DNA of 64,000 bases from Acidobacteria bacterium UBA823 (GCA_002296225.1 DBHR01000087.1:12976-76975), one strand, 5' to 3'; positions 1 through 32,640 are shown, counted from the first letter of the stretch. Numbers and translations are program-made. The notes: generated by a model from the sequence alone, not told the origin.

Positions 1-75
1 CGGCCAATCCCCACCACTGGTAGGCACGACGCCGACCGAAACCGCCAACAGAATGAGCAGAATCTTCACACGCAC
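1..75 (-). CDS. partial CDS: N-terminal 25 codons of a secreted or membrane protein running off the left edge
   Basis: The minus strand reads GAGGAG, an 8-nt spacer, then GTG CGT GTG AAG ATT CTG CTC ATT CTG TTG GCG, giving MRVKILLILLAVSVGVVPTSGGDWP. The start is hydrophobic and signal-like, and the frame stays open to position 1. Confidence 0.3.
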   Translation of the reverse strand, partial: MRVKILLILLAVSVGVVPTSGGDWP

Positions 76-185: not shown

Positions 186-3100
186 TTACTCCGTTTTGAG
201 CGCGGCCAGGACCGGAGTCCGGGCCATCACGCGGGTCGCGACGAGCGACGTTGTCGCACCAGCGAGCGCTACCGTCACAAGTAGCCAGCCGATCGACGCG
301 AACGGCAATCGCTGTCCGCGCTCAAGCCAGGCGGGTGCGATGGCGATCAGCGCACAACATGCCCCGATTCCCAAGCCCAGCGTTAGCAGCAGCACGTTCT
401 CGACCAGCACCACCAGCGTTAGATGCCGCCGATCGAATCCGACCGCGCGCAGCAGCGCGAGTTCCCGCCGCCGCTCTAGCACATTTCGAAGCAGCACGGC
501 ACCCAGCCCGACCGTTCCGAGCAGAAGCCCAAGGGCACCGAGTGTCTGAAACGTGGCCAAGTAGGTGTTCTCCACTCGGTGGAACGTTGCCAGCCGCTCG
601 GCCGTCAGCGCGACGTCGAACCCAAAATCAGCGAGCCGATCCTCTAGGGCAGCCGTGACCGCTTGGGCTCGATCCTCGGAAACGTCGATCATGAAGAAGC
701 GGAAACCCTCCGCCTCAGGAAACACACGGCGGAAGTGAACTTCCGACACGACCAGCTCACGTTGGAACACACTGTCGGCCAGTGCCGCGACAATTCGAAG
801 CCGCACCTCGCGATCCGTGTCGCGGTTCAATACAATCTCGTCGCCCACCGCCAAGTGCAACACATAGGTGAGCGAGTTGGCGTCGGCGAGGGCGGGAACG
901 ACCCCATCAGGCAGTTCCCGTCGCAGAAGGTGCCACGGGTTCTCCACCTCGGCTGCCGTCTTGGCGAGCGTGGTACCGAAGGTGAAACGGTTATCAGCAA
1001 TGAATCGGTCGGACACGGCAATGACGCGCGGGTCGGCCGGCCGGTAGAGGTTCAGGCAGCTGGCATCGTCCCCGGACCGGACACGGAACCGCTCGAATTC
1101 GACGCCATCGAAGAGGCCAGTTTCGAAATCGGACAGTCCGAGCCGATCGCGGCCGGCAGTGTTGGACAGGTCATCACCCACCGGTAGCAACGAATCGGCC
1201 AGCAGGGCGAACCCACCGGTACCCGACGCACGGTCCAGCGGGTCGCCTTCGTCTCGTCGGAACGCATCGACCGCGACGATGATGAAAGCAGCGAAGGCGA
1301 TAAGCGCAATGCAAAACACGCTCCGACCCGGGCGGTAGCTAGCGTTCCTCACGCCGAGCTGCACGACCGGCCAGGGCCTCGGTTCGGCGATTGAACCCGG
1401 GGCCATCCGGCGCAGCCAGACCCAAGCGAATCCGAGCAGCGCGCACAGCAGCAGTATGCCCGCCCCGAAGAACCCGGCGGTGGCGTTCAAGACGCTGGCG
1501 CGTGCCGCAACGACGAACCCGAGACCCAACGCCGCAAGAACCAGCGGTCCGACCCAGTCTGGGACGTGCACCAGGACCGATGAAGCCGGCGGCTCCGTCA
1601 TGCCGTGCGTAGCATCCGGTAGCGCGCCGGCCAGGAGACTACGAGGCGACGTGGCCTTGAGCGCCCGCAGACTGACGGCGATTGCTACCAGAGCAGCGAT
1701 GACACCACCAGCCGCACCAGCACCGAGCGTTTCTGGCGCAACGTGCAGGCTCAGTAGGGTCGTGCCTACTGCGTCGACCCACCAGGTCCGCAACCCGTAC
1801 ATGATGACCTGTGCGTACCCGACAGCGCAGACCATGCCAAAGAGCCCAGCTACGACGCCAATTACGATGGCCTCACGCCAAAACAGTGACCGGATCGTCT
1901 GGGGCGAAAACCCGAACGCCTGGAGCACACCGATCTCCCGCACCCGCTGCTCGACACCTAACCGGAAAAACAGGCTAGCAAGCAGCACCGCGGAAACGAC
2001 GAGGAAGAAGCTAAAGTACGTGAAATACTCCCCGAAGTCAGTCGCTCCAACCGACGCGCTGAGCGCGAGTGCCCGGACCGGAGTCACGCCGATACCGACG
2101 TCGACCGGGTCGAGTTTGGCAGCCAGAGCTTGGCGGTAGGTGGCGGCGATGGATTCGAGATCCTCGACGTCGTTAGCGAGCAAGCGGATTGAAGTGAGCT
2201 GCCCGTACCGCGACTGCCAGAGCGCCTGCCCGGCGCCGAGTTCAACGAACCCCTTCGGTGTGGTTCGGTAGCGGTCCCAGTATTCCTCGTCACGCGAGCC
2301 GATAGCGCTGAGATCGATCGGAAACGGCGGATTCCAGTCAACCATGCTCTCCGCATCGGTGATACCTGCGTAGACGGGGGCAAAATCGCGGTCGGCCGCG
2401 TCACCAGTGATCGGCAAGACGCCGTAGAGCTGAAAGTCAGACTGCCGTGTGATCAGGCGGCCAGCATCATCCCACACGTAGTACTCGGCCTCGATAATGT
2501 CGCCCTGCCGCGCACCTAGGTCGCGGGCCGCCCATTCGTTTAAGAGGATCGGCGGATACTCGAGCGCCTCGGGCCACAGCCCAGACCGGCGGCGCGCGTT
2601 CGACGACAGTGCCGAAAACGACGGAAAGTCAACGCCCGTCACGAGAGAGTACGGCACCTCCCGGGACCCCAGCCTCAGACGGTTGATGAGATAGGTCAGA
2701 ACCGGCTGCGGCCGTAGGCCGTGCTCGCCCGCAGATTCCCGCACCGCATCAATGACGATGGAGCCGACCATACCGGTGTCTGACTCGACGACTAGGGCGT
2801 CACGTTCGGGCAGCACCCTGACGGCCACAGCAAGATCGTCGAGCGTGGCCGTCGAGCGTAAGGCCGTCTCCACGCTGGCAACATGGTCCGCTGTGGACTC
2901 TCGTGTACCCGTGCGACCCGACAGTAGGATCGTGTTGACTTCACGATCGATTCCAAGCGATTCCTGTAGGCGCGGGAGCGAGACGAAGACCGCGCGCGCG
3001 GGACCCTGGTGCTGGCGGAGTGAGAACTCACCGAGCTCAGAAAACGACAGGATCGATCCGACGGTCAGGCGAACCGTCCGGCCGACATCGTCTCGCCTAC

Positions 3101-3611
3101 CGTGCAATGAGCCGATCGGCACCTCCGACGGGCGCTCGACCCGCACGAGTAGTGCGGCGCCGACGTCCACTTCGAGTTCCCCCACCAGTTCTTCACTAAG
3201 AAACACCTCGTTTCGGCCAGGAGCTGGTTGTGCGGCGCGCTGATGAAACGTCCAGAACCGGTTGTCGATGCCGTACACCCTGATGCCGGACGCGCGCCGC
3301 CCGCTGGCCGGGTCGATGACGAAGCCATCCAGTGCGATGAGCGGCGCCGCCGCGTCAAACAAATCGGCCATTGCCGGAACCGCCCGCAGCTCGTCGGAGA
3401 GCGCGTCCCGAAAGAACACCGGCGCCGTGATGACAGTGTCGGTCTGCCCGAGCCGCCCGAGCGCGAGTGCACGCAGAGAACCGCGTACCGAGCCGCCCAC
3501 GAGCAGTGCGCCCGCAAGCACCGCAACAGCGACCGCGACGCCGGCGATGACCGTGAGGTTCACCTGCCAGTAATAGGCTAGGCTGCGCCTGACAAAGCGT
3601 CCGAGAGTCAC
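186..3611 (-). CDS. ABC transporter permease, duplicated FtsX/MacB-LolCE-like, 1141 aa
   Basis: The GTG start overlaps the ATPase stop (GTGA at 3608-3611). There is an N-terminal TM segment (VNLTVIAGVAVAVAVLAGALLVGG). Two FtsX-type modules (REIGVLQAFGFSPQTIRSLF and RELALLRAVGFDRRHLTLVV) each follow a large extracytoplasmic segment. Confidence 0.85.
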   Translation of the reverse strand: MTLGRFVRRSLAYYWQVNLTVIAGVAVAVAVLAGALLVGGSVRGSLRALALGRLGQTDTVITAPVFFRDALSDELRAVPAMADLFDAAAPLIALDGFVIDPASGRRASGIRVYGIDNRFWTFHQRAAQPAPGRNEVFLSEELVGELEVDVGAALLVRVERPSEVPIGSLHGRRDDVGRTVRLTVGSILSFSELGEFSLRQHQGPARAVFVSLPRLQESLGIDREVNTILLSGRTGTRESTADHVASVETALRSTATLDDLAVAVRVLPERDALVVESDTGMVGSIVIDAVRESAGEHGLRPQPVLTYLINRLRLGSREVPYSLVTGVDFPSFSALSSNARRRSGLWPEALEYPPILLNEWAARDLGARQGDIIEAEYYVWDDAGRLITRQSDFQLYGVLPITGDAADRDFAPVYAGITDAESMVDWNPPFPIDLSAIGSRDEEYWDRYRTTPKGFVELGAGQALWQSRYGQLTSIRLLANDVEDLESIAATYRQALAAKLDPVDVGIGVTPVRALALSASVGATDFGEYFTYFSFFLVVSAVLLASLFFRLGVEQRVREIGVLQAFGFSPQTIRSLFWREAIVIGVVAGLFGMVCAVGYAQVIMYGLRTWWVDAVGTTLLSLHVAPETLGAGAAGGVIAALVAIAVSLRALKATSPRSLLAGALPDATHGMTEPPASSVLVHVPDWVGPLVLAALGLGFVVAARASVLNATAGFFGAGILLLCALLGFAWVWLRRMAPGSIAEPRPWPVVQLGVRNASYRPGRSVFCIALIAFAAFIIVAVDAFRRDEGDPLDRASGTGGFALLADSLLPVGDDLSNTAGRDRLGLSDFETGLFDGVEFERFRVRSGDDASCLNLYRPADPRVIAVSDRFIADNRFTFGTTLAKTAAEVENPWHLLRRELPDGVVPALADANSLTYVLHLAVGDEIVLNRDTDREVRLRIVAALADSVFQRELVVSEVHFRRVFPEAEGFRFFMIDVSEDRAQAVTAALEDRLADFGFDVALTAERLATFHRVENTYLATFQTLGALGLLLGTVGLGAVLLRNVLERRRELALLRAVGFDRRHLTLVVLVENVLLLTLGLGIGACCALIAIAPAWLERGQRLPFASIGWLLVTVALAGATTSLVATRVMARTPVLAALKTE

Positions 3612-4285
3612 GTCACGCTCCCGCGCGGTACAAGCCGCTGACCGGTTAATTCGAACTTTCCAGCGAACCGATCAGCAAGGGTTGGGTTGTGGGTGACGAC
3701 GACCAACACGGTTTGCTGCTCACGATGCAGCGTCAGGAGTAAAGATGCCACGGCTTCAGCTGACTCACGATCGAGGTTGCCCGTCGGCTCGTCGCATAGG
3801 ACCAGCGGGGGGTGTCGGATGAGGGCCCGGGCGAGCGCAACGCGCTGCTTTTCGCCACCTGACAATTCGGCGGGTCGATGGTCAAGCCGGTGGCTGAGGC
3901 CTACCCGATCGAGAAGGTCGCTGGCGCGCGCGTGTCTCTCGGGCAACGGGTTTCCAACGAGCGTCGGCAGCAACACGTTCTCGATGACTGTGCACTGCGG
4001 CAACAGCAAGTGGTCCTGAAAAACGAAGCCGATTACCCGATTCCGAAAGGCCGCGAGAGCCTTCGGGTCGAGCGCAAACGGGTCGTTACCGTCGAGCGAC
4101 ACGTGTCCCGAGGTCGGCGGCTCGAGGGCGCCGAGGATGTAGAGGAGCGTACTCTTGCCGCTACCCGATGGCCCCATGATCGACGCCGACTCGCCGCGCT
4201 GCATCGACATGCTGACGTCGCGGAGTACCGAAAACTCCCCGCGGGGCGTTGGGTACACTTTGGACAGACTGGATACTTCGAGCAA
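3608..4285 (-). CDS. ABC transporter ATP-binding protein (MacB/LolD-like)
   Basis: Walker A GPSGSGKST, signature LSGGEKQRVALARAL and Walker B LVLCDEPTGNLD. A 4-nt overlap with the downstream permease suggests translational coupling. Confidence 0.95.
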   Translation of the reverse strand: MLEVSSLSKVYPTPRGEFSVLRDVSMSMQRGESASIMGPSGSGKSTLLYILGALEPPTSGHVSLDGNDPFALDPKALAAFRNRVIGFVFQDHLLLPQCTVIENVLLPTLVGNPLPERHARASDLLDRVGLSHRLDHRPAELSGGEKQRVALARALIRHPPLVLCDEPTGNLDRESAEAVASLLLTLHREQQTVLVVVTHNPTLADRFAGKFELTGQRLVPRGSVT

Positions 4286-4302
4286 CGTTGCGACCTCTCG
4301 CT

Positions 4303-5622
4303 TCAGGATACGGCAGACACTCGGGCCGACGCGACCACCTGCCCGAACAGCTCGATCGCTCGGTCGGCCATCCGGGACACATCGTAGTACTTCCGGACGC
4401 CGTGGGCGCCCTGCTGGCGTAACTGTTCCGTGCGGTCAGGGTCACGATAAAGCGCGGCTAATTCGTCAGCTAGACGATCGGCTCTGTTCGGCTCGAACGT
4501 GATGCCCCCGCCCGTACGTTCCAAAATTTCCGGGAACGCTCCATGCCGCGGCTGGACGACTGGCACACCGCAGGCCATAGCTTCAAGAACGGAAAGACCC
4601 TTGGGATCCGGGTAGGTACTTGGAACCGACAACACATCCAAGGTTCCAAGAAACTCGATCTTCTGAGCACGATCGAGCGCGCCGCGATAGGTAAACTCGT
4701 CACCGAGCCCCCACTCCAACAGCTTCCGTTCGATCTCGATGAGATAGCTCCGGTGCTCTGGCGCCAGATACCCCGCCACCTCAAGGCGGGCGCCCGTCAC
4801 GCCGAGATGTTCGCGTACCCTGCGATAGGCATCGGCCAGTAGGTGGAGTCCCTTCTCCGGGGCAACGCGGGCGAAGTAGCCCACGGTAAACGGTCCAGGC
4901 CGACTCGATGGCGTCACAGGGTTATGGGGATACCCCTCAAGATTGATGCCGAGCGGAAGGACGTCGAGCCGATTCCGAGGCACCGCGAGGTAATCAACCA
5001 TAAAGTCAACGTAGTACTCACTCACCGGCAAGAAACGATCGACGTCGTTCACGCACGCACGAATGAGGTCAAGTGCCTGGTCGCGCTGAGCGCGCGGAAG
5101 CCCGGCCAGGAATAAGTCTTCCCCCTGCAGCGTGCAACACACCGGGCGGCCGAGCGCCTCGCGGAGCGGCGCGGCCAGGCCGATCAACAACGAGTTCGGA
5201 AGAACAACAAGGTCCGGCGCTGGCTGCGTCCGGAGCCAAGCGATGAGTTTGTGCAGCTCTTTACGTTGGTAACCGTGGTCCCCTTGCAGCACCGAAATCG
5301 TGAGGGCGCCGAGCTCCGATGGATCGACGCTGATCGCTCGACCCGCCGCCGCACGGATCACCGACGGCGCGTCCCACAATCGATCGAAAAAGTGCGGCGT
5401 TTCGCGGAAGAGTGGCACGCGCTGTTGCAGGTAAACGCTAATCCCGCCATAGAACACACGCCCGTCGCTCACGTTGCGTTCATCGGTCAGCGTGGGCGTG
5501 TAGAGGGGAAGCAGGAGAACATCATGCCCGCGGATGATCAGTTCGGCCGCCAGGGCATTGTCGCGCAGACAACTCCCGCAGTACATGTTGGCCGCCCCCG
5601 CGGTGATCGACAGGATTCGCAC
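4303..5622 (-). CDS. glycosyltransferase, GT-B fold (family 4-like) with an N-terminal CxxC
   Basis: The N-terminus MRILSITAGAANMYCGSCLRDNALAAELIIRGHDV is typical of a GT4 first beta-alpha unit. The C-terminal donor-binding region reads GLSVLEAMACGVPVVQPRHGAFPEILE. Length is 439 aa. Confidence 0.8.
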   Translation of the reverse strand: MRILSITAGAANMYCGSCLRDNALAAELIIRGHDVLLLPLYTPTLTDERNVSDGRVFYGGISVYLQQRVPLFRETPHFFDRLWDAPSVIRAAAGRAISVDPSELGALTISVLQGDHGYQRKELHKLIAWLRTQPAPDLVVLPNSLLIGLAAPLREALGRPVCCTLQGEDLFLAGLPRAQRDQALDLIRACVNDVDRFLPVSEYYVDFMVDYLAVPRNRLDVLPLGINLEGYPHNPVTPSSRPGPFTVGYFARVAPEKGLHLLADAYRRVREHLGVTGARLEVAGYLAPEHRSYLIEIERKLLEWGLGDEFTYRGALDRAQKIEFLGTLDVLSVPSTYPDPKGLSVLEAMACGVPVVQPRHGAFPEILERTGGGITFEPNRADRLADELAALYRDPDRTEQLRQQGAHGVRKYYDVSRMADRAIELFGQVVASARVSAVS

Positions 5623-5627
5623 CGCAG

Positions 5628-7046
5628 CTATGCCACCTGAAAGGCCCTCGCCCGGAACAGAAAATCGACGATGTTCCCTTCGTGGGGCGCCAGCCAGTTG
5701 ATCTGAGTTGTCGGAATCGGCCCTAAGTTCAGACGATCGATGTTGGTCGCCTCCAGCAGGGACTGACGGAACGCCTCGTCACGCGTGATGCCAGTTGCAA
5801 CCAACGTCGGCCCGATCGACCCGATCATCTCATTCTGAGGGCACTCCACAACAGCAACGAACGGAAACATGTACTCCTTACTAGCCGCAGCCGCTTGCGG
5901 TGACCCACACCGGATCACCGTGGGCCGGAGATAGCCGTAGCGCTCATGGCTCGTCAGGCGGCGGCCTCCGTGGTAGGACGCAGTCGCATCCTCGACGTCG
6001 TCTTCCTCAAGGACACGGTCGATGTCGCCAGAGATGGCCTCGGCCTGCCCTGGCACCGTGAAAGCTGCGAGCTCGGCCTTAGGGTCGTCGACCGGTAATG
6101 GTGTGATCGGCCCGAGTCGAGCGGCGAGCGCCGCAGCGATTTCCCGCGTATGGCGCGAGGCCCAAATGCCGGAACAGTTAATGCAACTCCGTCCGCTGTT
6201 CACCAGCACACTGTGCACCATCGGGTCGAGATACTGCTCCCAATCGTCTACCGCGTCGTCGCCGATTAGGATCTTACTGAACCCGGGTCCATGCACTTGT
6301 ATGGCTGGGTTGCCGCGGTAGCGATCCACGGTGGCCTGGCCACCGAAGATGAAGCTTCGCGGGCAGTGACTGAGAACGGCGGCACCCACTTCGGCCTCGC
6401 CGGGATAGAGCGAGATTGACTGCCGTGGAATACCAGCCTCGAAGAAAGCTTGCGACAACCGCCAAGGGGTCCACGGCTCCTGCGGTCCGGGCTTGAACAC
6501 TAGCCCTACCTGTAGCGGCACGACCGGCAGCCAAAGGCTGTGCACCCCAGGCGAGTTCGACGGCAGCACCATGCCGAGCACCGGCGAAGCCGCCTGATAG
6601 CTACGCAGGACGCCGTCCTCGTCACCGAATCCCCGCGTGAGGATACCGAGGTCAAGCTCGCGCGTGAGTGCCGCGAGAATCTGGTCAAGCTGTGCTAGCA
6701 CGCCGCCGAGCTTAGCCATATTCATCCGGCAAAGCTGTTCGGGCAGTCCGGTCGTCGCCGATTGCTGCCGCACGAAGTCGTCAGGAGACTGCAACGCGTC
6801 CCCAATCGGCAGGTCGGCCGACAGGAACAACTCTCCAGCACGCTGTACCATGCGCACGAGGTCGGCACACGGAATCTCCCGCAGCGCGTCGCGGGCGAGC
6901 TGCGCCTTCCGTAGATCGCGGGCAACCAATCCACCGTTCGCCTGGCTTACCTCGGCCACCGGCTCGCCGGTGGCGAAGTGCAACATCGAATTCACCTCGA
7001 GGCTACGATACGGTTCGCCCCACCGAAGCACAGGAAAATGAATCAA
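5628..7046 (-). CDS. aldehyde dehydrogenase superfamily protein (possibly LuxC-like acyl reductase)
   Basis: Length 472 aa. The catalytic-Cys region NSGRSCINCSGIW resembles the ALDH GQxCxAxS motif. The segment expected to be ELGGK reads HGPGFSK. The start lies 1 nt after the stop of the upstream gene. Confidence 0.7.
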   Translation of the reverse strand: MIHFPVLRWGEPYRSLEVNSMLHFATGEPVAEVSQANGGLVARDLRKAQLARDALREIPCADLVRMVQRAGELFLSADLPIGDALQSPDDFVRQQSATTGLPEQLCRMNMAKLGGVLAQLDQILAALTRELDLGILTRGFGDEDGVLRSYQAASPVLGMVLPSNSPGVHSLWLPVVPLQVGLVFKPGPQEPWTPWRLSQAFFEAGIPRQSISLYPGEAEVGAAVLSHCPRSFIFGGQATVDRYRGNPAIQVHGPGFSKILIGDDAVDDWEQYLDPMVHSVLVNSGRSCINCSGIWASRHTREIAAALAARLGPITPLPVDDPKAELAAFTVPGQAEAISGDIDRVLEEDDVEDATASYHGGRRLTSHERYGYLRPTVIRCGSPQAAAASKEYMFPFVAVVECPQNEMIGSIGPTLVATGITRDEAFRQSLLEATNIDRLNLGPIPTTQINWLAPHEGNIVDFLFRARAFQVA

Positions 7047-7047
7047 G

Positions 7048-8130
7048 TCAGTACACTCCCACCGTCATCGGGGATTCCAGTCGACCAAACGGTCGGACGC
7101 CACTGACACCATCCCACGGATAGCGCTTATCCGGACCCTCGCGCTCGCCCTCGTCCCGCTCTAGGAACCGGGGCAAGAAAAATTCCTTCGTGAGCGTCGT
7201 GATCATCACGCGACCGGTCCCGCCGTAGTCAACGACTCGGTCGGTATCGTCGGCATCAACCACCTGGATAACCGCACGCGGCTGTGGCGCATAGTAGGTG
7301 ATCTTGTAGCTGTCTTCCGGCGTATAAGGCGCGCTCGGCGCCAACCCCATCAGCGTGTTGCCGTAGGTCGGCGTCATGTAGACACCATCGAGCAGTTCCT
7401 CGTGCGCGAACCGGTTCCATTGCGGCGTGAACTCAGTGCCCCCAGAAAAGATGCCCGTGATCCCCGTGTCCTTAATACTCGATCCGTCGACCTCCAGACG
7501 ACTCGCCAACGCTTCGAGCAGCTTCGGCGTCGTGAACAGACACTTGATGTCATGATTCGCACTGAGGAGCGTCATAGCTTGGTCGATGACGTGCGCCTGA
7601 TAGGCCTTCAAGTGCTCCATCCAGTTTTTCTTGATCAGCTTGATCACCCAACGCGGATCAAGATCGAGGCTGAAACAGATACCGCCGCGGTATTGCGCAA
7701 GATGTTCCACAGCGAGCCGTAGGCGCCGAGGACCGCTTGGCCCGAGCATTAACCAGTTCGAACTAGGTGGGAAGCAATCATCGGGAAGCGTCTTGGAGAA
7801 CAGCTCATAGTCGATCCGAAAATCGTCGATATTGATCCGGCTCTTGGGCACACCGGTTGTGCCACCCGTCTCGAAAACATATATCGGCCGAGTAGCGTAA
7901 GCCTTCGGCACCCATCGGCGAACTGGACCGCCGCGAAGCCACTCGTCATCGAAGTGCCTGAACTGCTTCAGGTCGTCGAAGCCCTCCACCTCACGCCGGG
8001 GGTCCCAGCCAGAACGTTCGGCCCACTCCAGCCAAAACGGACAACCTGTCGACGGCTCAAAATGCCAACCGACGACCTCTCGAACCCAAGTATCCAGCTC
8101 TTCTCGAGCCTGTCGAACCGCGTCTGCCAT
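7048..8130 (-). CDS. adenylate-forming enzyme, phenylacetate-CoA ligase / coenzyme F390 synthetase-like
   Basis: It has the AMP-binding P-loop-like FETGGTTGVPKS. I chose the ATG at 8130 (MADAVRQAREELD). The ORF track extends to 8367, but that extension is Ser/Thr/Arg/Pro-rich and would overlap the divergent MOSC gene. Confidence 0.7.
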   Translation of the reverse strand: MADAVRQAREELDTWVREVVGWHFEPSTGCPFWLEWAERSGWDPRREVEGFDDLKQFRHFDDEWLRGGPVRRWVPKAYATRPIYVFETGGTTGVPKSRINIDDFRIDYELFSKTLPDDCFPPSSNWLMLGPSGPRRLRLAVEHLAQYRGGICFSLDLDPRWVIKLIKKNWMEHLKAYQAHVIDQAMTLLSANHDIKCLFTTPKLLEALASRLEVDGSSIKDTGITGIFSGGTEFTPQWNRFAHEELLDGVYMTPTYGNTLMGLAPSAPYTPEDSYKITYYAPQPRAVIQVVDADDTDRVVDYGGTGRVMITTLTKEFFLPRFLERDEGEREGPDKRYPWDGVSGVRPFGRLESPMTVGVY

Positions 8131-8224
8131 CGACCATTCGATCCTATACCAGTGTCGTTTAAAAGCGCCGGGAACCCACTGATATAGACTAGCCGCGCGT
8201 GGAGAGCGTTTACGGAAGAGAACG

Positions 8225-8686
8225 ATGAGCGGTCGTGTAGAGCGAATTTGGCTCAAACGCGCCAAACGGGGCAACATGGATGAAATCCGTGAAGTGCGTG
8301 TCGAGGTGGGCAAGGGTATCGTGGGCAATGTCGACCAGGGCGGCTGGCGGCAGATCACCATCATCACTCAAGAACGCTGGGAGGAGTTGATGCGCGAGCT
8401 CGGCGTCTCGCTCGATCCGTCGAGCCGCCGTGCCAACCTGCTTCTGTCGGGTGTGGACCTCGCTCACACCGGCGGGCGCGTCCTCGAAGTTGGCAATGCC
8501 CGACTGCGGGTGCGTGGAGAAACTCGTCCTTGCCAACTCATGGAACAGACCGTTCCCGGCTTGCGCGGCGCGATGACCCGCGGATGGGGCGGTGGCGCGT
8601 TCGCCGAAGTGCTCACTGATGGGTCGATTGCGGTCGGTAACACGGCGCGCTGGGTCGACGAAGGTAGCGCGACGTGCAAGCCCTAG
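8225..8686 (+). CDS. MOSC domain protein (YiiM-like)
   Basis: Length 153 aa. The pattern GIVGNVDQGGWRQITIITQERWEEL ... RANLLLSGVDL ... VRGETRPCQLMEQ is typical of MOSC beta-barrel proteins, including the conserved Cys. Confidence 0.8.
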   Translation: MSGRVERIWLKRAKRGNMDEIREVRVEVGKGIVGNVDQGGWRQITIITQERWEELMRELGVSLDPSSRRANLLLSGVDLAHTGGRVLEVGNARLRVRGETRPCQLMEQTVPGLRGAMTRGWGGGAFAEVLTDGSIAVGNTARWVDEGSATCKP

Positions 8687-9591
8687 CGTGCCTCACAGCA
8701 GCATTCCCGGCCGGGGTGCTGATTGCCAGCGCGATCGCACTCTACCACCCTCCATCGTTTACCTGGTTCAGTGGACCATTCATCACGGTCGGTCTTGGCA
8801 TCATTATGCTCAGCATGGGGATGACATTGGGCGTCGACGACTTCCGCCGAATCGCAGAGCACCGGCGTCTAGTCGTGCCCGGCGTGGTACTGCAATACAC
8901 CGTCATGCCCATGCTCGGGTGGAGCCTCGGCTATCTGTTTGACCTACCCACCGAGTTTGCGGTCGGACTCGTGTTGGTCTCGTCGTGCCCAGGCGGCACG
9001 GCGTCAAACGTCATCTCGTTCCTGGCTAAAGCCGACGTGGCGCTCTCGGTGACGATGACCGCCCTATCGACGCTGCTTGCCGTCGCGATGACTCCGACGC
9101 TGACGGCGCTACTCGCCGGTAGTCGGGTCGAGGTGCCCGCCGCCGGTCTGCTCCTAAGCACCGTTCAGGTCGTGATTCTGCCCGTCATCCTCGGGGTGAG
9201 CCTCAATCGCTACGCGCCGAAGTTCACGCGGGCCGTCCTGCCAGCCGCACCACTCGTGGCGGTCATCACGATTACCCTCATCGTCGCTTCGATCATCGGC
9301 GCGGGGAAGCAACAGGTAATAAACGCCGGCCTTACGCTACTGTTCGCCGTCTTCACGCTGCATGTTGGCGGTTTCGTGCTTGGCTATGCCGCCGGTCGAC
9401 TGATTCTGGGTCAGGAGCGTGCTGCGCGCACAGTGTCTATCGAAGTCGGCATGCAGAACTCTGGCCTGGGCGTCGTCCTCGCCCGCCAGAATTTCGCCAG
9501 TCCGCTCGTCGCCATTCCGTGTGCGATTTCGGCCGTCATTCACTCGCTCATCGGCAGTCTGGCCGCGGCCGTCTGGCGTCGGAAGCCGTAA
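8674..9591 (+). CDS. bile acid:sodium symporter (BASS/SBF-like) family transporter
   Basis: A polytopic membrane protein of 305 aa with the family signature LVSSCPGGTASNV. The GTG start overlaps the MOSC stop by 13 nt. Confidence 0.85.
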   Translation: MQALACLTAAFPAGVLIASAIALYHPPSFTWFSGPFITVGLGIIMLSMGMTLGVDDFRRIAEHRRLVVPGVVLQYTVMPMLGWSLGYLFDLPTEFAVGLVLVSSCPGGTASNVISFLAKADVALSVTMTALSTLLAVAMTPTLTALLAGSRVEVPAAGLLLSTVQVVILPVILGVSLNRYAPKFTRAVLPAAPLVAVITITLIVASIIGAGKQQVINAGLTLLFAVFTLHVGGFVLGYAAGRLILGQERAARTVSIEVGMQNSGLGVVLARQNFASPLVAIPCAISAVIHSLIGSLAAAVWRRKP

Positions 9592-18047: not shown

Positions 18048-18826
18048 CCCCGGCCCTCGAACTCCGGGGCGTCACCGTCACGCGAGACGGCCGGCCGATT
18101 CTCGACCGGATTAACTGGACGGTGGCGCCTGGCGAGCGTTGGATTGTGCTCGGACCGAACGGATCGGGCAAAACAACGCTATGCCAAGTGGCGTCGCTGT
18201 ATCAGCACCCGGCACGAGGCACGGTACGGGTCCTCGGTGAGACGTTGGGCCACACAGAAGTCAGGGAATTACGCAAGCGCATCGGGTACGCGAGCGTGCA
18301 GCTGGCCGACATGTTGCGGCCCAACCAGACCGCAACGGACATAGTCATCACCGCCAAACACGGCGCGCTCGCAACTTGGTGGCACACCTACGAGGAAGCT
18401 GACTATGCGAAGGCGAGACAACTGCTCGGCCGGTTCGGCTGTGGAGACCTAGCAGCCCGCCGGTTCGGTACACTGGCCTCCGGCGAACGAAAGCGGGTCG
18501 AAATCGCACGAGCACTCATGGCAGACCCGAGCTTGCTGTTGCTCGATGAACCGTCGGCCGGCCTTGATCTGGGTGGTCGAGAGACGTTGGTCGCAACGCT
18601 GGCTTCGCTCGCCAGAGATCGTGCCGTCCCGGCAATCGTCCTGGTCACGCATCATGTCGACGAGATTCCACCAGGCTTCACGCACGTGCTCCTTCTTGCC
18701 ACCGGCAGGAGGCTCGCAGCAGGCCGGCTCGACGAAACGCTTACGGACGATACCTTGTCACGGTGCTTCGGACTCGAGTTACACGTCGAACCGCGGAACG
18801 GCCGATGGCAGGCGTGGACCGGATGA
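18032..18826 (+). CDS. orphan ABC transporter ATP-binding protein (ModF/YlmA-like)
   Basis: Walker A GPNGSGKTT, signature LASGERKRVEIARAL and Walker B LLLDEPSAGLD. No permease is adjacent. The start is GTG at 18032 or ATG at 18044. Confidence 0.85.
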   Translation: MFERMTPALELRGVTVTRDGRPILDRINWTVAPGERWIVLGPNGSGKTTLCQVASLYQHPARGTVRVLGETLGHTEVRELRKRIGYASVQLADMLRPNQTATDIVITAKHGALATWWHTYEEADYAKARQLLGRFGCGDLAARRFGTLASGERKRVEIARALMADPSLLLLDEPSAGLDLGGRETLVATLASLARDRAVPAIVLVTHHVDEIPPGFTHVLLLATGRRLAAGRLDETLTDDTLSRCFGLELHVEPRNGRWQAWTG

Positions 18827-18889
18827 GCAGGAAAGAAACACTGTAATTCGTAGACCCAGACGGCGGCCTTCCGCTGAGATGTTCTCGGC

Positions 18890-19579
18890 TCACGAACGCT
18901 TCTGACCCTCGAGCAACAGCGCCAGCGCCTCGTTGAGCGACGCCGTCGCCCGCGCCTCGAGCGCCCGCGCTAAAAATCCGGTCAAGTTGGCGACGGCAAA
19001 GCTACTCCCTTTCAGGTTACGCGACGGAGACACTCCAGGAATCGGCCTCGGGAACCCGGAGGCGGATAAGACTACCGCGCCGTTCTGCCGGGTCCACCGA
19101 TACTGATCGCGAGGACAGTCCCAGTCCAAAGCGACCGGCACGACACCGGGCAGGCTACCGGGTAGCCACTGCGTCTGTCCGTCGGCGGCCGCCGAGACGA
19201 TCAGTGCGCCGTTCGTGGCTGCACGGTCCACGGTTTCGCGCAGTAGATCAGCGTGGGCGGCATTCGCCATGCCGAGGCTGAGATTGATCAGGCGGGCGCC
19301 CGACCTAGCCGCCCAGTCGATCGCCGCCACCAGCGCCTCGGTACTCGTCGAGAGCTCCCGGTCGAACACCTTAACGGCGTAAATGACACTTCCCGGGGCT
19401 TTTTCTCGGATAGCCGCTGCCACTGCCGTGCCGTGACCAAGGCGGTCAATAAAGTCTGGGTGTTCGGTGCCGTCGGCTGCGATCCCGACGCCTCCGGCGA
19501 CACGGCCAACGTGCGGGTGATCGGGATGCACGCCGCTGTCAACAACGGCTACACGCACGGGAACAAGGTCACTCATCAC
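18890..19579 (-). CDS. qhpE: small subtilisin-like serine protease, QhpE-like (gamma-leader peptidase)
   Basis: Asp/His/Ser triad motifs VVDSGV, GHGTAVA and GSSFAVANLTG in only 229 aa. It overlaps the upstream ABC exporter gene by 4 nt and lies within the qhp cluster. Confidence 0.8.
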   Translation of the reverse strand: MMSDLVPVRVAVVDSGVHPDHPHVGRVAGGVGIAADGTEHPDFIDRLGHGTAVAAAIREKAPGSVIYAVKVFDRELSTSTEALVAAIDWAARSGARLINLSLGMANAAHADLLRETVDRAATNGALIVSAAADGQTQWLPGSLPGVVPVALDWDCPRDQYRWTRQNGAVVLSASGFPRPIPGVSPSRNLKGSSFAVANLTGFLARALEARATASLNEALALLLEGQKRS

Positions 19580-21318
19580 GATTCCGTAGCGCCCACACCT
19601 GAGCCGGTGTCGAACAAGCGGGCAAACGCACCGCCGCGAGCCATCAGTTCAGATGGCGAGCCCTGCTCGACCACATTCGCGCCATCGAGCACAATCACCC
19701 GATCAGCCTGCCGCGCAAGCTCTAGCCGATGGGACACAACGATCGTCGTCCGGGCGCGCATGAGCACCTCATACCCCGTCATCACCTGCCGAGCCGTCGC
19801 GGGGTCGAGCGATGCGGTGGGCTCATCCAGTATCAGAACGGCCGGCGCCATTAGGAATGCCCGAGCGATCGCGACCCGCTGCCGCTCACCGGCCGACAGC
19901 GCCCGACCTCGCTCTCCGACTTGGGTGGCGTAACCCTCGGGCAGTCCGGCGACGAAGCCCTCAAGACCGGCCGCGCGCACGGCGGCTGCCAGATCCTCAT
20001 CGGTCGCCTCCGGCCGGGCGTATCGAAGGTTCTCGGATAGTGTCGCGTGAAAAAGAAACGGCTCTTGATCGACAAGGGCAATGTGACGGCGGACCTCACG
20101 GAGTGGAATCTCGCGGAGATCCCGGCCGTCCAGCAACACCCGGCCCTGGTCCGGGTCAATGAGCCGAAGTAAGAGATCGGTCAACGTCGACTTCCCACTG
20201 CCACTGGGACCCACGACAACCAGCATCTCGCCCGGCGCAACGTCCATCGACACGTCCTCAAGCGACGGTTCCCCGCGATCGAAGGACACGGTAACGTGCT
20301 CCATTGTCACCCGACCGCGCACCTGGTCGAACGTGACGCCGCCGGGCGGGTCCACGACCTCCACGTTAGCGTCTAGAAGTTCGTGCACGCGTCCTAGCGA
20401 AACCTTGGCCGTAGCCAGGCTCGCATAGAGTCCCATCAACGCCTGCAGGGGTGGGAGGACGCGCGCTTGGTAGGCCATAACCGCGACCAACGTCCCCATC
20501 GTGACCGTGCCGTCAATGACTCGGCTGCCGCCGTACAGAAAGACGATCGCCGTGCTTCCCGAGAGAATGAGGCCGGGCAATCCACCCGACAGGTACGTGA
20601 CCCACTGCATTGACATGAGCGCGTCCACGAACGCATCGTTGCGCTGTCGAAAGCGGTCGACCTCTCGCGTTTGAGCATTTGACGTCACGACCAGCTTCAT
20701 GCCCTGGATCGTTTCGATCAGAAAGCTTCCAATATCCGCACTGCGCGCGCGGACGGTTCGGACCCGTCCCTCCAGCCGCCGCCGATAGCGCACGAGTGCC
20801 CAGAGGCTCGGCGGCAGCAGGCACAGGCTCACGACGAAGAGTCGCACGTCAAGCCAGATCAGCATACCGAGCGAACCAACTAGAAAGATTACGTTGCCGA
20901 GTGTGGCGAGCACTGCCTCGGACGCGACTCGCTGAATTTCGCCGATGTCGTTGTTGATGCGCGACATGATGTCGCCAAGCCGCGTTTGCGCGTAAAACCG
21001 TGGTGACAAGCACTGCAGGTGCCGATAGAGCGCCAAGCGCATGTCGAACAAAATCGCGGCCGACACACGCGTATACCTCAACCCACTCACAATGTTGAGC
21101 GCAAAGCTCGCGATTGTGATCAGCACGAACGTGAGCACGATTCGCCGAAGTACACCGCCGTCACCCCCCAGCAACGCACTGTCGACCAAGCTGCGCGACA
21201 GATACGGCACGTAGAGCGCTAGGCCCGTGCTCGTCAAGCTGATTACGAGAACGAGCAGCAGTCGGTGCCAATACGGCACCACATACGCCAGCGCGCGGTG
21301 AAACTGGGGATCTAGCAA
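19576..21318 (-). CDS. qhpF: ABC exporter (fused TMD-NBD), QhpF-like
   Basis: Six-TM exporter domain followed by Walker A GPSGSGKST, LSAGERQRVAIARAF and ILDEPTASLD. TTG start. It sits between the second qhpB copy and qhpE. Confidence 0.85.
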   Translation of the reverse strand: MLDPQFHRALAYVVPYWHRLLLVLVISLTSTGLALYVPYLSRSLVDSALLGGDGGVLRRIVLTFVLITIASFALNIVSGLRYTRVSAAILFDMRLALYRHLQCLSPRFYAQTRLGDIMSRINNDIGEIQRVASEAVLATLGNVIFLVGSLGMLIWLDVRLFVVSLCLLPPSLWALVRYRRRLEGRVRTVRARSADIGSFLIETIQGMKLVVTSNAQTREVDRFRQRNDAFVDALMSMQWVTYLSGGLPGLILSGSTAIVFLYGGSRVIDGTVTMGTLVAVMAYQARVLPPLQALMGLYASLATAKVSLGRVHELLDANVEVVDPPGGVTFDQVRGRVTMEHVTVSFDRGEPSLEDVSMDVAPGEMLVVVGPSGSGKSTLTDLLLRLIDPDQGRVLLDGRDLREIPLREVRRHIALVDQEPFLFHATLSENLRYARPEATDEDLAAAVRAAGLEGFVAGLPEGYATQVGERGRALSAGERQRVAIARAFLMAPAVLILDEPTASLDPATARQVMTGYEVLMRARTTIVVSHRLELARQADRVIVLDGANVVEQGSPSELMARGGAFARLFDTGSGVGATES

Positions 21319-21347
21319 GGGGAGCGTCAGACGTCAGGCGCCAAATA

Positions 21348-22454
21348 TCACTCTGGCGGCATGACGATCAAATCGGTCGTGGCGTCGGCTTCGAGGTCAA
21401 GCGTACGCAAGTATCGGAACGTGTCGGACTCGTAAATGTCGATCGTTTGGCCAGCCTGATAAACATACAGCAATTGACCGTTCGTGCTCGGCTTCACCCG
21501 CATCCTTGGCCGACCCGCAAACCGTAGCCTAGCGTCGAGTCGGCGGTTCTCTAAATCGAATGCCCAGAACTCATAATGCCCGATTTCCTGGACGAGTCCG
21601 TAGGCCTTTGTTCGGTCCGCCGTCATGTTAAAACTAACCTTGGTCGCCGGCCCGAGCGTGTAGAAGTACTCGACTCTTTTCTCGTTGAGATTGACACGCG
21701 CAACGCCCATCTGCCGACCATCCCGCACAGGTGACCCCACCGTGAAGAGGCCCGTATAAAACCCGAATTCTTCGTTGAGCCCTCCGCTAAAGCCGAAGCG
21801 CATCGGGCCGAGACCAGGCTCAAGCGGTTCCGAGAGATCCCATCGATCGACTTCAGTGAAATCGGCCGTTTCGTAGATCACGACTTGGTCGAGAAAGAAG
21901 TACAGAAGTGAACCGTCGGGCGAAAACAACATATTGAGCTGCTGCTGCTGCTCGCCGTCCGGCCAGGGAATAGCCCGCATGAACTCGTGCGTTGACAGGT
22001 CGTACTGTGACAGCTCATGTGAATCAATCTCAAACCGGTCGACCAGCTTTGTCGATGAGCGCGTCAAGAGGATGACGTAGCGTTCCTCGGGATCAACGGC
22101 GAAACTTTCGATTCGAGTCCTCGTGCTCCCCTGGCTAAGCGTGAGCGTGTCGAGCGTCGAACGGGTGGCGATGTCAATGACCTCAAAATACTCTGCCGTC
22201 ATGTCGTTCAAGTAGAACCGCTGCTGGTCCGTAGAAAGCGTTAGGTTCCTCGGCATCCCGGACGTCACCTGAATCTCGTCGACCACCTGCTCGGTAGCCT
22301 CGTCGATGACGTAGATTTTGTGCGCGTATCCGCCAATGTAGAGCGTGCTGTTTCCGCCCGTTAGGCGCGTGTCTTCCTTGCCCTGCGCCTGCACCGCCGC
22401 GCTGGCGAGCCCGAAGAGCGCAATCAGGCACGCCATCCGAATCAGATACACCAT
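21348..22454 (-). CDS. qhpB: QHNDH beta subunit-like beta-propeller, copy 2
   Basis: Signal peptide MVYLIRMACLIALFGLASAAVQAQ. It is homologous along its whole length to the ORF at 22832-23944. I chose the ATG at 22454 because it gives a 22-nt gap after the gamma copy, mirroring the 24-nt gap in copy 1. The ORF is open to 22496. Confidence 0.8.
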   Translation of the reverse strand: MVYLIRMACLIALFGLASAAVQAQGKEDTRLTGGNSTLYIGGYAHKIYVIDEATEQVVDEIQVTSGMPRNLTLSTDQQRFYLNDMTAEYFEVIDIATRSTLDTLTLSQGSTRTRIESFAVDPEERYVILLTRSSTKLVDRFEIDSHELSQYDLSTHEFMRAIPWPDGEQQQQLNMLFSPDGSLLYFFLDQVVIYETADFTEVDRWDLSEPLEPGLGPMRFGFSGGLNEEFGFYTGLFTVGSPVRDGRQMGVARVNLNEKRVEYFYTLGPATKVSFNMTADRTKAYGLVQEIGHYEFWAFDLENRRLDARLRFAGRPRMRVKPSTNGQLLYVYQAGQTIDIYESDTFRYLRTLDLEADATTDLIVMPPE

Positions 22455-22476
22455 GACATTCTTCGAGGCTCGGCGA

Positions 22477-22818
22477 TCAGGGGAAGATAAGGTCAATTTT
22501 CCGCCAGTCCTTTTGGGCTGACGCGCAGGTAGCCGTCCAATCCGGCGCGTGGTTTAATTGGTCCGGCACCTGAGCGGGCCAGAAACACCCAAGATGACAG
22601 TCGAACAGATCCCGCTCGACCGGAGAACAAAGTCCCGCGGTGCCACCTTCAATGTCGACCTCCCACCCAGGGAAGAAGACGAACGAGCATCCTAGCGGAA
22701 TGTGCGCATCTGGCCGTAGCGCCCTCTGTTGCAGCGCCACAACGTCCCGTCCGGCCTCAGCTTCGACATGCTGTTTGACGCGGTCGGCCTTCTGATTAAC
22801 TGGCTTGAGATGTTTCAT
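22477..22818 (-). CDS. qhpC: QHNDH gamma subunit precursor (CTQ and thioether-crosslinked peptide), copy 2
   Basis: Length 113 aa. The core GCSFVFFPGWEVD ... GLCSPVERD ... DCHLGCFWPAQVPD ... KDWRKIDLIFP matches the spacing I recall for P. denitrificans QhpC (Cys7-Glu16, Cys27-Asp33, Cys37/Trp43 CTQ, Cys41-Asp49). Confidence 0.85.
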   Translation of the reverse strand: MKHLKPVNQKADRVKQHVEAEAGRDVVALQQRALRPDAHIPLGCSFVFFPGWEVDIEGGTAGLCSPVERDLFDCHLGCFWPAQVPDQLNHAPDWTATCASAQKDWRKIDLIFP

Positions 22819-22831
22819 CGGTCACTCGTCC

Positions 22832-23944
22832 TTAGTTGGGCGGAATGACGAACAGATTCGTCCTTTGGTCCGCTTCGAGCTCAAGTGTTCGCAGGTATCG
22901 GTAGGTCCCGGCTTCGTAGACGTCGATCGTTTCTCCAGCGTAATAGAGATACAGTAGCTGGCCGTTCGAACTTGGCTTCAAGAGCAACCGCGGCCGGCCG
23001 TGGAATCGCTGCCGCGGGCCCAAGCGCCGATTCTCCAGGTCGAAGGACCAGAATTCAGTTTGACCGTACTCCTTTGCGAGGCCATAGGCCATCGTCCGGT
23101 CCGGTGTTAGGTTGAAACTGACTCCGATCGCCGGTCCGAGGGTGTAGAAGTAGTCGATCTTCTTCTCAGTGAGGTTCACTCGCGCCACGCCCATTTGCCG
23201 TCCGTCCCGAACCGGCGATTGGACAGTGAACAGGCCGGTGTATAACCCGGGTTCTTCGTTGATCAGATCACGAAAGCCGAATTGTATCCGGCCGAGCCCA
23301 GGTTCCAATGGCTGCGACAGGTCCCAGCGATCCACTTCGGTGAAATTAGTTGTTTCGTAGATAATGATTTCATCGAGGAAGAAATAAAGCAGCGATCCAT
23401 CAGGTGAAAAAACCATGTTGAGGGGTGCCCGACCGGGTCGTCGAGACGTCGGCCACGGAATGTCCCGCACAATCTCATGGGCACCGAGGTCGTACTGCAC
23501 GAGCCGCATTGGGTCAATTTCGAAGCGGTCGACGAGCTTCGTCGTCGCCCAGGTCTGGATGATGAGATAGCGCTCCTTCGGGTCTATCTCAAAGTTGCGA
23601 ATACGGACCTTCTTACTCCCATCGCTCAGTGTGAACGCATCGAGTGTCGAACGAGATGCAATATCGATGATCTCGATATGTTCCATCGTTGTATCGTAGA
23701 GGTAGAAACGCTCGCGGTCAGCCGATAGCGTCATGACTCTTGGAGTCCCGGTACTGACCCGGATTTCGTCCACGACTTGTTCAGTGGCTTCGTCGATGAC
23801 GTAGATCTTCTGGGCGAAGCCACCTATGTAAAGCGTGCCGTTGCCGCCTGTCAGTTGTGAGCCGTTCTGGGCGCTAGCCGGTGCATTCAGGAACGCAAAC
23901 ACGCAAGCGATGATTACCGGACGAAAATATCGCATGGCCGTCAC
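22832..23944 (-). CDS. qhpB: QHNDH beta subunit-like beta-propeller, copy 1
   Basis: Signal peptide ending in APASAQ. Blocks shared with copy 2 include KIYVIDEATEQVVDEI, VDRFEID, FSPDGSLLYFFLD, FTEVDRWDLS, SPVRDGRQMGVARVNL and FDLENRRL. Confidence 0.8.
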   Translation of the reverse strand: MTAMRYFRPVIIACVFAFLNAPASAQNGSQLTGGNGTLYIGGFAQKIYVIDEATEQVVDEIRVSTGTPRVMTLSADRERFYLYDTTMEHIEIIDIASRSTLDAFTLSDGSKKVRIRNFEIDPKERYLIIQTWATTKLVDRFEIDPMRLVQYDLGAHEIVRDIPWPTSRRPGRAPLNMVFSPDGSLLYFFLDEIIIYETTNFTEVDRWDLSQPLEPGLGRIQFGFRDLINEEPGLYTGLFTVQSPVRDGRQMGVARVNLTEKKIDYFYTLGPAIGVSFNLTPDRTMAYGLAKEYGQTEFWSFDLENRRLGPRQRFHGRPRLLLKPSSNGQLLYLYYAGETIDVYEAGTYRYLRTLELEADQRTNLFVIPPN

Positions 23945-23968
23945 CAGAGATCAGTTTCCGGATCGAAG

Positions 23969-27443: not shown

Positions 27444-27530
27444 AGTTCGAGAATACCTGAGGTGCCGCTTCTTTGTAACACAAGGGCCTGGCGAGAACAA
27501 TCGGGGGTTTCAGACTGCTTGAGAGTCTTC

Positions 27531-32624: not shown

Positions 32625-32640
32625 ACATAGATAGCAGCAA

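Follow-up and report, generated by a model that had tools for sequence, protein, structure and literature searches.

The closest described relatives of the genes considered here come from the biosynthesis of phenazine antibiotics, in which EhpF, an ANL enzyme without the C-terminal subdomain, reportedly acts together with EhpG. Bera et al. are said to have proposed in 2010 that EhpF with EhpG turns phenazine-1,6-dicarboxylate into the 6-formyl compound via an acyl-adenylate, and to our knowledge acid reduction of the EhpF/EhpG type is known only as such a proposed tailoring step of phenazine antibiotics. The present analysis concerns an operon of related genes on the minus strand of a 64,000-nucleotide (nt) stretch of DNA from the marine genome of Acidobacteria bacterium UBA823 (GCA_002296225.1 DBHR01000087.1:12976-76975), and this whole stretch is called the window. 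An EhpF-type adenylating enzyme and an EhpG-type protein of the aldehyde dehydrogenase (ALDH) superfamily are followed there by a GT4 glycosyltransferase, by the ATPase and permease of an ABC system, and by a secreted beta-propeller whose gene is cut by the window edge. Together, the six genes could link a cytoplasmic two-component carboxylate reductase with a glycosyltransferase, with an "extractor" in the form of a YbbP-like Type VII ABC system, and with a beta-propeller in the periplasm, an integrated model in which our confidence is evenly balanced.

In clusters of Pantoea and Proteus, the gene directly downstream of ehpF is ehpG, listed as an "aldehyde dehydrogenase family protein" (PMC11278526), and ehpF-ehpG in the Pantoea plasmid show the same adjacency as the pair of the window. 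Reductive members of the ALDH superfamily require activated acids, and gamma-glutamyl-phosphate reductases (ProA family) among them carry a histidine exactly at the position of the usual catalytic glutamate (PMC12041015). In LuxE-type ANL subunits, the acyl-carrying cysteine is located in a C-terminal loop (PMC12041015).

The EhpF/EhpG-type pair and its operon

The genes of the operon are given below in the order of transcription, with lengths in amino acids (aa).

7048..8130, minus strand: EhpF-type adenylating enzyme of the ANL superfamily, 360 aa, consisting of the N-terminal domain alone (PDB match, blastp, Pfam)
5628..7046, minus strand: EhpG-type ALDH-superfamily protein, 472 aa, a predicted NAD(P)H-dependent reductase of an activated acyl group (Pfam, EhpG homology)
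4303..5622, minus strand: retaining GT-B glycosyltransferase of family GT4, 439 aa (Pfam Glycos_transf_1 and Glyco_transf_4)
3608..4285, minus strand: ABC ATPase of the LolD/MacB/YbbA type, 225 aa (Pfam ABC_tran, 123 bits)
186..3611, minus strand: fused double-FtsX permease, 1141 aa, a YbbP-like Type VII membrane subunit (Pfam FtsX twice, 73.6 bits)
1..74, minus strand: N-terminus of a secreted PQQ_2/BamB-like beta-propeller, the sixth gene, cut by the window edge (MRVKILLILLAVSVGVVPTSGGDWP; signal peptide)

The adenylating enzyme is homologous to EhpF over its full length. A phmmer search against the PDB aligns residues 3-349 of 360 with EhpF (3L2K/3HGU, E 1.4e-43), and BLASTP gives 33% identity to EhpF of Pantoea agglomerans over 365 aligned positions (E 7e-47). 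Pfam AMP-binding is matched below threshold, at 25 bits, no AMP-binding_C domain is found by Pfam, and the protein stops where EhpF stops. The P-loop ETGGTTGVPK fits the pattern (T/S)GG(T/S)TGxPK, with T88-G93, P95 and K96 invariant in the family alignment. The C-terminal tail (T/E)(V/G)GVY is also invariant in the family (PMTVGVY in the window, at 7048-7065), and its GVY ending is common to EhpF (IEGVY; locus L086, 7778-8878) despite the overall identity of 33%. From the sequences, this tail appears to be functional, and it perhaps touches the ALDH partner. The initial annotation had called the enzyme PaaK/F390-synthetase-like, a label that gives way to EhpF homology, since PaaK is not matched at all and the NCBIfam model F390_ftsA, whose cut-off is 458.7 bits, gives a score of 21.5. 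No paa genes were seen in the neighbourhood of the operon, and no phz or ehp genes are present among the annotated neighbours in the window (~1-40 kb) or beside the pair in the related loci examined.

The ALDH-superfamily protein matches Pfam Aldedh at 65.3 bits (cut-off 23) and EhpG with 24% identity over 458 aa (E 6e-26). In an alignment of 18 family members that includes EhpG, the catalytic Cys288 and the oxyanion Asn164 are invariant (18/18). The ELGGKS motif of classical ALDHs is replaced by HGPGFSK, which places His252 at the position of the general-base glutamate, an equivalence taken from the HMMER alignment; the glutamate is absent from all 18 sequences, being replaced by His in the clade of the window, by Gln in EhpG, by Arg in a Streptomyces homologue and by Phe in locus L089. 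Since the cysteine and the asparagine are kept and a histidine stands in place of the hydrolytic glutamate, as in the gamma-glutamyl-phosphate reductases, the family looks, by its sequence, like a reductase of a mixed anhydride and not like an aldehyde oxidase. A catabolic or hydrolytic ALDH was rejected on the missing general-base glutamate and on the NCBIfam equivalogs, none of which comes near its cut-off (the best scores 34 bits against 593). The family profile is nearest to classical ALDHs, and LuxC is not among the 60 best PDB matches listed.

The initial annotation had also likened the pair to the LuxE/LuxC logic. Its chemical part, activation and then reduction of a carboxylate, agrees with an ALDH protein that keeps Cys and Asn and has lost Glu, while the closest relatives turn out to be EhpF and EhpG instead. 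Membership of the LuxC or LuxE families was rejected, as neither occurs among the Pfam matches at E <= 0.01 and the adenylating enzyme lacks a C-terminal cysteine, none being present in its last 40 residues; neither luciferase nor LuxD was seen with the pair. The pair thus falls into none of the well-characterised groups that had been named as possible homes for it, as no PaaK, F390 synthetase or catabolic ALDH equivalog fits.

An EhpG-like ALDH with 30% identity to that of the window is encoded on a plasmid of Streptomyces sp. NBC_01426 (L087, 7995-13044), in a cluster with chorismate/phenazine-type genes. It sits beside two ATP-grasp enzymes, with no ANL gene, and this EhpG-like reductase may take acyl-phosphates. 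The plasmid had been followed as a lead to an EhpF-like partner and was dropped, because the open reading frame (ORF) beside its best ALDH match is not EhpF-like, the ATP-grasp enzymes being found instead.

The ORF listing of the minus strand returns the ALDH (472 aa), glycosyltransferase (439 aa), ATPase (225 aa) and permease (1141 aa) genes at the coordinates given above, and 7048..8367 for the first gene. They are separated by gaps of 1 nt (7047), 5 nt (5623-5627) and 17 nt (4286-4302) and, between ATPase and permease, by a 4-nt overlap (3608-3611), which reproduces every junction from which a single coupled operon of five tightly packed minus-strand genes had been deduced. The five genes stand, but the extent of the unit does not, as the propeller gene downstream belongs to it as a sixth member. 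The families assigned to the five genes were likewise recovered with Pfam (FtsX twice, ABC_tran, GT4 domains and Aldedh), AMP-binding being found only below threshold.

The start of the adenylating enzyme is placed at the ATG at 8130 and not at the upstream GTG at 8367, because the 120 best homologues are all 350-377 aa long and the longer ORF overlaps a divergent MOSC gene (8225-8686, plus strand). The 79 codons by which the mechanical ORF runs past the ATG (8131-8367, minus strand) are therefore spurious. The TTG start of the ALDH gene at 7046 is backed by the N-terminus MIHFPVLRWG, conserved across orthologues; the public annotation of the same contig (L094, 6626-7984) begins this gene 20 codons late, giving 452 aa. 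The permease encoded on the public contig NZNJ01000005.1 (GCA_002693525.1), with the record label "Acidobacteria bacterium", is 100% identical to that of the window, and the genomes closest to the window are labelled Vicinamibacterales. In consensus scans, which carry little weight, only two terminator-like sites turned up inside the operon, both weak and fewer in number than shuffled sequence gives; a single promoter-like match, also weak, lies just within the first gene.

The glycosyltransferase, the ABC system and the propeller

The N-terminal motif AGAAxMYCGSCxRDN of the glycosyltransferase confirms the CxxC motif already noticed in the initial annotation: Cys15 and Cys18 are present in 20 of the 21 aligned orthologues, the exception being an N-terminally cut ORF, and a third cysteine, Cys163, in all 21. 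For the (D/E)x7E motif, the window has DPKGLSVLE and the family consensus has EPKGIFLLE. The AlphaFold2 (AF2) model has a predicted local distance difference test (pLDDT) score of 82.5, and its top Foldseek matches are MshA (TM-score 0.71-0.79), GlgM, BshA, sucrose-phosphate synthase (SPS) and HepE. Residues 43-110 form a conserved aromatic and basic insertion, modelled at low confidence, which could be an interfacial segment. A faint GT4-conflict match had prompted the idea of an anti-phage defence system, which was abandoned since PADLOC gives only generic ABC and FtsX domain matches, and nothing for the ANL enzyme, the ALDH protein, the GT4 or the propeller.

Type VII ABC systems act at the periplasmic face of the membrane and do not carry cytoplasmic products across it; they typically handle membrane-embedded or lipid-like substrates and are usually paired with a periplasmic partner, be it EnvC, LolA, MacA-TolC or TesA (PMC12646458). 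For one of them, YbbAP-TesA, the proposed role is to pull out hydrophobic esters so that they can be hydrolysed (PMC12646458). The ATPase of the window scores below the NCBIfam equivalog cut-offs throughout (LolD 240.7 bits against 307.75, YbbA 192.7, FtsE 189.4 and MacB 178). The permease has the 1141 aa and the duplicated FtsX domain that had been ascribed to it, and ten transmembrane (TM) helices are predicted from hydropathy and AF2 secondary structure in a 4+2+4 arrangement; hydropathy places periplasmic domains at ~40-525 (~485 aa) and ~784-1022 (~240 aa). In the AF2 model, with a mean pLDDT of 66, the first of these domains is good. Foldseek finds YbbP of Escherichia coli (9GE6/9GE7) as the best match (E 4.5e-12, ~920 aligned columns), followed by LolE/LolC, BceB and MacB. 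No MacA/DevB/HlyD adaptor or TolC-like duct was found in the operon, in the annotated window to ~40 kb or in the Pfam-labelled syntenic loci, and a tripartite pump of the MacAB-TolC or DevBCA kind was rejected on these missing genes. The envelope-spanning exporter like MacB/LolCDE that had been described here is not supported; in its place stands a YbbP-like 10-TM Type VII ABC system, for which no partner of the MacA/TolC kind was found.

The obvious candidate for the periplasmic partner of this system is the propeller encoded downstream. The first 25 codons of its gene, at 74..1 of the window, encode a Sec-type signal peptide followed by DWP (MRVKILLILLAVSVGVVPTSGGDWP). It is complete, at 421-442 aa, on NZNJ01000005.1, where it begins 47-110 nt after the permease gene and the next gene is convergent, and it matches Pfam PQQ_2 at 117.7 bits; only PQQ_2/BamB-like repeats were recognised in it, with no hydrolase or PQQ-dehydrogenase signature. 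In four loci (L002, L041, L049 and L061), an orthologue sharing 66-84% identity is encoded downstream of the permease, in three cases with another gene in between. The density of PQQ_2 genes is 0.88 per 10 kb at distances of up to 2.5 kb from the cassette, compared with 0.25-0.55 per 10 kb farther off.

In the closest relatives (L006, 18011-20644; L007, 18084-20783), a fused membrane/spermidine-synthase-like protein of 877-899 aa is encoded between permease and propeller; it is cut to 288-320 aa in L001-L003 (~18088-19050) and is absent from the window. A second secreted PQQ_2 propeller of 417 aa, 24% identical to that of the operon, is encoded at 38785-40038 on the minus strand of the window, which shows the paralogy of this family within the genome.

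Distribution and competing explanations

The family of the adenylating enzyme comprises at least 8000 clusters at 90% identity in a word-indexed search, the best 120 of them at 77-99% identity, and at least 595 species genomes carry it in a scan of one genome per species. The best 80 carriers belong to Vicinamibacteria, other Acidobacteriota, Terriglobia, and Pirellulales or other Planctomycetia, with 72-86% identity between Acidobacteriota and Planctomycetota. The EhpF-like superfamily is small when clustered at 50% (1486 matches at E <= 1e-3), and the clade of the window is set off by a gap from relatives at 35-49% identity.

Synteny was counted by blastp of the window proteins against six-frame ORFs in 62 species loci that extend at least 8 kb downstream, a sample biased towards Vicinamibacterales; the remaining neighbour genes come from a caller based on GC content at third codon positions (GC3), which is crude and loses genes where ORFs overlap. 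An adjacent ALDH gene lies downstream of the ANL gene, on the same strand, in 61 of the 62 loci. ATPase and/or permease follow on the same strand in 46. The GT4, missing from most Vicinamibacterales loci, is found in 14, and 13 loci have all five genes. A search started from the GT4 recovered the same ANL-ALDH-GT4-ATPase-permease order in one Blastocatellia and one Bryobacteraceae metagenome-assembled genome, where 2-4 PQQ_2 propellers adjoin and all five proteins are 46-68% identical to those of the window; with this order and these identities in such lineages, the cassette is old and has been inherited as a unit. The gene order proposed in the initial annotation is hence kept in related genomes, both in the 13 loci with all five genes and in Blastocatellia and Bryobacteraceae.

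Other lineages vary this arrangement. Directly after the pair, Planctomycetota loci and a relative at 49% identity carry an iron-containing alcohol dehydrogenase (Fe-ADH) gene, then those of a PQQ_2 propeller and a HemN/ChuW-like radical SAM protein, with no ABC genes. Some Acidobacteriota bring all of these genes together, such as L066, which holds ANL, ALDH, GT4, ABC, propeller and radical SAM genes in one string, with Fe-ADH upstream. In many Vicinamibacterales (L004, L005, L010, L012, L014, L016 and others), one or two DUF4399 genes (150-185 aa), absent from the window, lie between ANL and ALDH. In L013 (OZ253664.1, a Vicinamibacterales chromosome), the ANL gene is directly followed by the permease and blastp finds neither ALDH nor ATPase; this may be a natural deletion variant.

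The proposed mechanism has four steps, of which the first two are well supported. The EhpF-type ANL enzyme, without its C-terminal subdomain, would form an acyl-adenylate using ATP, and the acyl group would then pass to Cys288 of the ALDH protein, where NAD(P)H would reduce the thioester to an aldehyde; elsewhere, the adjacent Fe-ADH would take the aldehyde on to the alcohol. That the pair converts a carboxylate into an aldehyde in this way, by ATP-dependent activation and thiol-mediated reduction with NAD(P)H, is highly probable judging from its homologies and conserved residues. The third step would again be cytoplasmic, as are the ANL and ALDH proteins and the GT4 in view of their lack of any signal peptide or TM segment: the Cys-rich GT4 would add a sugar to the product or to a derived acceptor, giving an amphiphile at the inner membrane face. 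In the fourth, for which YbbAP-TesA, LolCDE-LolA and DevBCA serve as analogues, the compound would be present in the outer leaflet, two copies of the ATPase would drive the fused 10-TM permease to pull it from the membrane, and the secreted propeller, as the carrier or processing partner, would receive it from the permease. These last two steps are put forward tentatively, with a confidence clearly short of even. They cannot be obligatory for the pair, because the GT4 occurs in only 14 of the 62 loci and the ABC genes are lacking in 16, and for the same scarcity of the GT4, the least constant member, the glycosylated product suggested in the initial annotation cannot be the general output.

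Several observations weigh against this integrated model. There is no ABC system within reach in those 16 loci and no GT4 in most; the second periplasmic domain of the permease is modelled at low confidence; and the enrichment of propellers by the cassette is only ~2-fold, in a highly paralogous family of which most neighbouring copies are 22-25% identical. The reduction by EhpF/EhpG is itself reportedly a proposal from structure and genetics (Bera et al. in 2010). Other observations hint at a small polar or aromatic acid as the substrate. EhpF, the nearest characterised homologue, reportedly acts on an aromatic dicarboxylate; most of the nearest GT4 structures (MshA, BshA, GlgM, SPS) belong to enzymes with small soluble acceptors; and BASS/PanS-like, SSS/PanF-like and MFS carriers, a thiamine pyrophosphate (TPP) enzyme and Fe-ADH recur near the pair in other loci. 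The pair could accordingly reduce such an acid, imported or endogenous, the GT4 would make a soluble glycoside (a cofactor, a thiol-like metabolite or an osmolyte), and the ABC system and propeller would serve a separate envelope task. The loci without ABC genes and the high identity of the ANL enzyme across two phyla, which fits a universal small substrate, would agree with such a product. It is nonetheless rather unlikely, as the ABC genes are adjacent in 46 of the 62 loci and distant classes share the order of the five genes, whose proteins all diverge together, which is hard to explain without a functional link, as Type VII ABC systems typically handle membrane-embedded or lipid-like substrates (PMC12646458), and as the carrier matches all stay below their family cut-offs. 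For this last reason, pantoate or pantothenate, suggested as substrate by the PanS-like and PanF-like neighbours, is a weak lead only and was not retained.

The same uptake-type carriers (BASS, SSS, MFS) adjoining the pair in many loci, the lack of outward transport of cytoplasmic products by Type VII ABC systems, and the ester extraction proposed for YbbAP-TesA, which would release acids, could also be accommodated by a flow in the reverse direction. The ABC system and propeller would extract and process an envelope or exogenous compound and release an acid, which would re-enter the cell to be activated, reduced and perhaps glycosylated for reuse or detoxification. We hold this to be distinctly improbable, given that the propeller has no recognisable hydrolase or PQQ-dehydrogenase signature and that spending ATP and NAD(P)H on the reduction of a salvaged acid brings no obvious benefit. 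Yet another arrangement would be modular, with a self-sufficient ANL-ALDH pair to which GT4 and ABC genes in Acidobacteriota, or Fe-ADH, propeller and radical SAM genes in Planctomycetota, are lineage-specific additions, so that there would be no single conserved product. The neighbour sets do differ between the phyla while the pair stays 62-86% identical, and the GT4 always adjoins the ATPase-permease genes, also apart from the pair (L042, L054, L071 and L084); but some loci, such as L066, hold all modules in one string, as would be expected of one extended system with gene loss or dispersal, and independent modules are quite unlikely.

The integrated model, a carboxylate reductase followed by a glycosyltransferase and an ABC extractor with its propeller, can be carried one step further, at low probability. 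The cassette would make and deliver a new envelope or periplasmic compound common to Acidobacteriota and Planctomycetota, either a glycolipid or a cofactor-like derivative of an aromatic acid, in which the EhpF/EhpG-type reductase, with Fe-ADH and HemN-like radical SAM proteins where present, would build an aldehyde- or alcohol-bearing molecule, and the YbbP-like ABC system would load it onto PQQ_2 propellers. If true, a huge orphan family of PQQ_2 propellers would gain a ligand and a function.

All the components belong to known superfamilies, and nothing here is categorically new. What appears to be undescribed is the occurrence of an EhpF/EhpG-type reductase beyond the phenazine clusters, the very large and highly conserved clade that it forms in Acidobacteriota and Planctomycetota, and the fixed linkage of the pair to a Cys-motif GT4, a YbbP-like Type VII ABC system and PQQ_2 propellers. 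Literature searches found no paper describing the cassette, in line with the earlier failure to match it to a described pathway, and those for griseoluteic acid enzymes and phenazine carboxylate reduction gave nothing useful. The largest and most conserved branch of the EhpF/EhpG-type pair belongs to abundant, poorly studied soil and marine phyla, and with its substrate identified, a metabolite or envelope component common in these organisms would probably come to light. For the YbbP-like Type VII architecture, this would be only the second functional context, with the beta-propeller as a new kind of candidate periplasmic partner, and the ANL-ALDH pair would provide a compact ATP- and NAD(P)H-dependent carboxylate reductase for biocatalysis.

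Surroundings of the operon and likeness to known systems

Upstream of the operon, two further features complete the picture.

8131..8224, no strand: intergenic region of 94 nt from the ANL gene to the MOSC gene, the presumed promoter region
8225..9591, plus strand: divergent pair of a MOSC-domain protein (8225-8686; Pfam MOSC) and a BASS/PanS-like Na+-coupled organic-anion transporter (8674-9591; NCBIfam)

A scan of the intergenic region with the sigma-70 consensus gave nothing convincing. The transporter scores 252 bits with the NCBIfam model bass and 250 bits with PanS, both under the cut-off. In 23 of 60 loci, all of the Vicinamibacterales type, the ANL gene has a MOSC gene nearby, usually divergent and directly upstream, and the MOSC and BASS/PanS-like pair is possibly associated with the operon.

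Farther along the window, the minus strand carries at 18890-29087 a complete quinohemoprotein amine dehydrogenase (qhp) cluster, with a QhpG-like FAD monooxygenase, the alpha subunit, a radical SAM protein, an ABC exporter and a subtilase. The cluster is unusual in having two gamma-subunit genes (23969-24310 and 22477-22818), each followed by an ORF of 370-382 aa without a Pfam match, and these ORFs are presumably the beta subunits. A tie between the operon and this nearby cluster (18.9-29 kb) was considered and dropped, since in the other loci examined the cassette has no qhp genes within 10 kb of it. The plus strand at 31236-34529 carries a small operon of a PGA_cap (CapA-like) protein, a DUF5752 protein and a TreT-like GT4 (trehalose synthase N-domain).

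Among known systems, the EhpF/EhpG pair of the D-alanylgriseoluteic acid phenazine cluster of Pantoea agglomerans (3L2K, 3HGU) is the one to which both enzymes of the window are homologous over their full length (33% for ANL, 24% for ALDH). Gene order, similar protein sizes, the absence of the ANL C-terminal subdomain and the GVY tail are common to both pairs; both ALDH proteins have Cys and Asn and lack the catalytic Glu, whose site is Gln in EhpG and His in the window; and the proposed chemistry, from acid through acyl-AMP to aldehyde, is the same. In contrast, the partners in the window are a GT4, a Type VII ABC system and a propeller instead of phenazine tailoring enzymes, and its subfamily forms a clade apart, tightly conserved and very large, mostly of Acidobacteriota and Planctomycetota. 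LuxE/LuxC of luminous bacteria (PDB 7XC6) also combine an ANL-superfamily activating subunit with an ALDH-superfamily reductase, on whose cysteine the acyl group ends before NADPH reduces it to the aldehyde.

For the operon as a whole, the heterocyst glycolipid system of Anabaena offers a similar logic: with its Hgl synthases, the HglT glycosyltransferase and the DevBCA-HgdD exporter, an acyl chain is converted into an alcohol, glycosylated and moved outward via the DevA/DevC (FtsX-type) ABC system. The ATPase and permease of the window give weak DevA and DevC matches, but the homology is at the superfamily level, there is no polyketide synthase (PKS), no DevB-type adaptor or TolC was found, and the permease is fused and YbbP-like. 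The closest likeness of the ABC part is to YbbAP-TesA of E. coli (PDB 9GE6-9GE8; PMC12646458), which has the same fused 4+2+4 TM arrangement with periplasmic domains between TM1-2 and TM7-8, the same separate LolD-like ATPase, the best structural match in YbbP, and, as in the window, the gene of a secreted protein alongside as candidate periplasmic partner. Unlike YbbP, to which it is only 14-15% identical, the permease of the window has a first periplasmic domain (~485 aa) about twice as large; its candidate partner is a PQQ_2 beta-propeller and not an SGNH hydrolase, and the system is linked to cytoplasmic biosynthetic enzymes.

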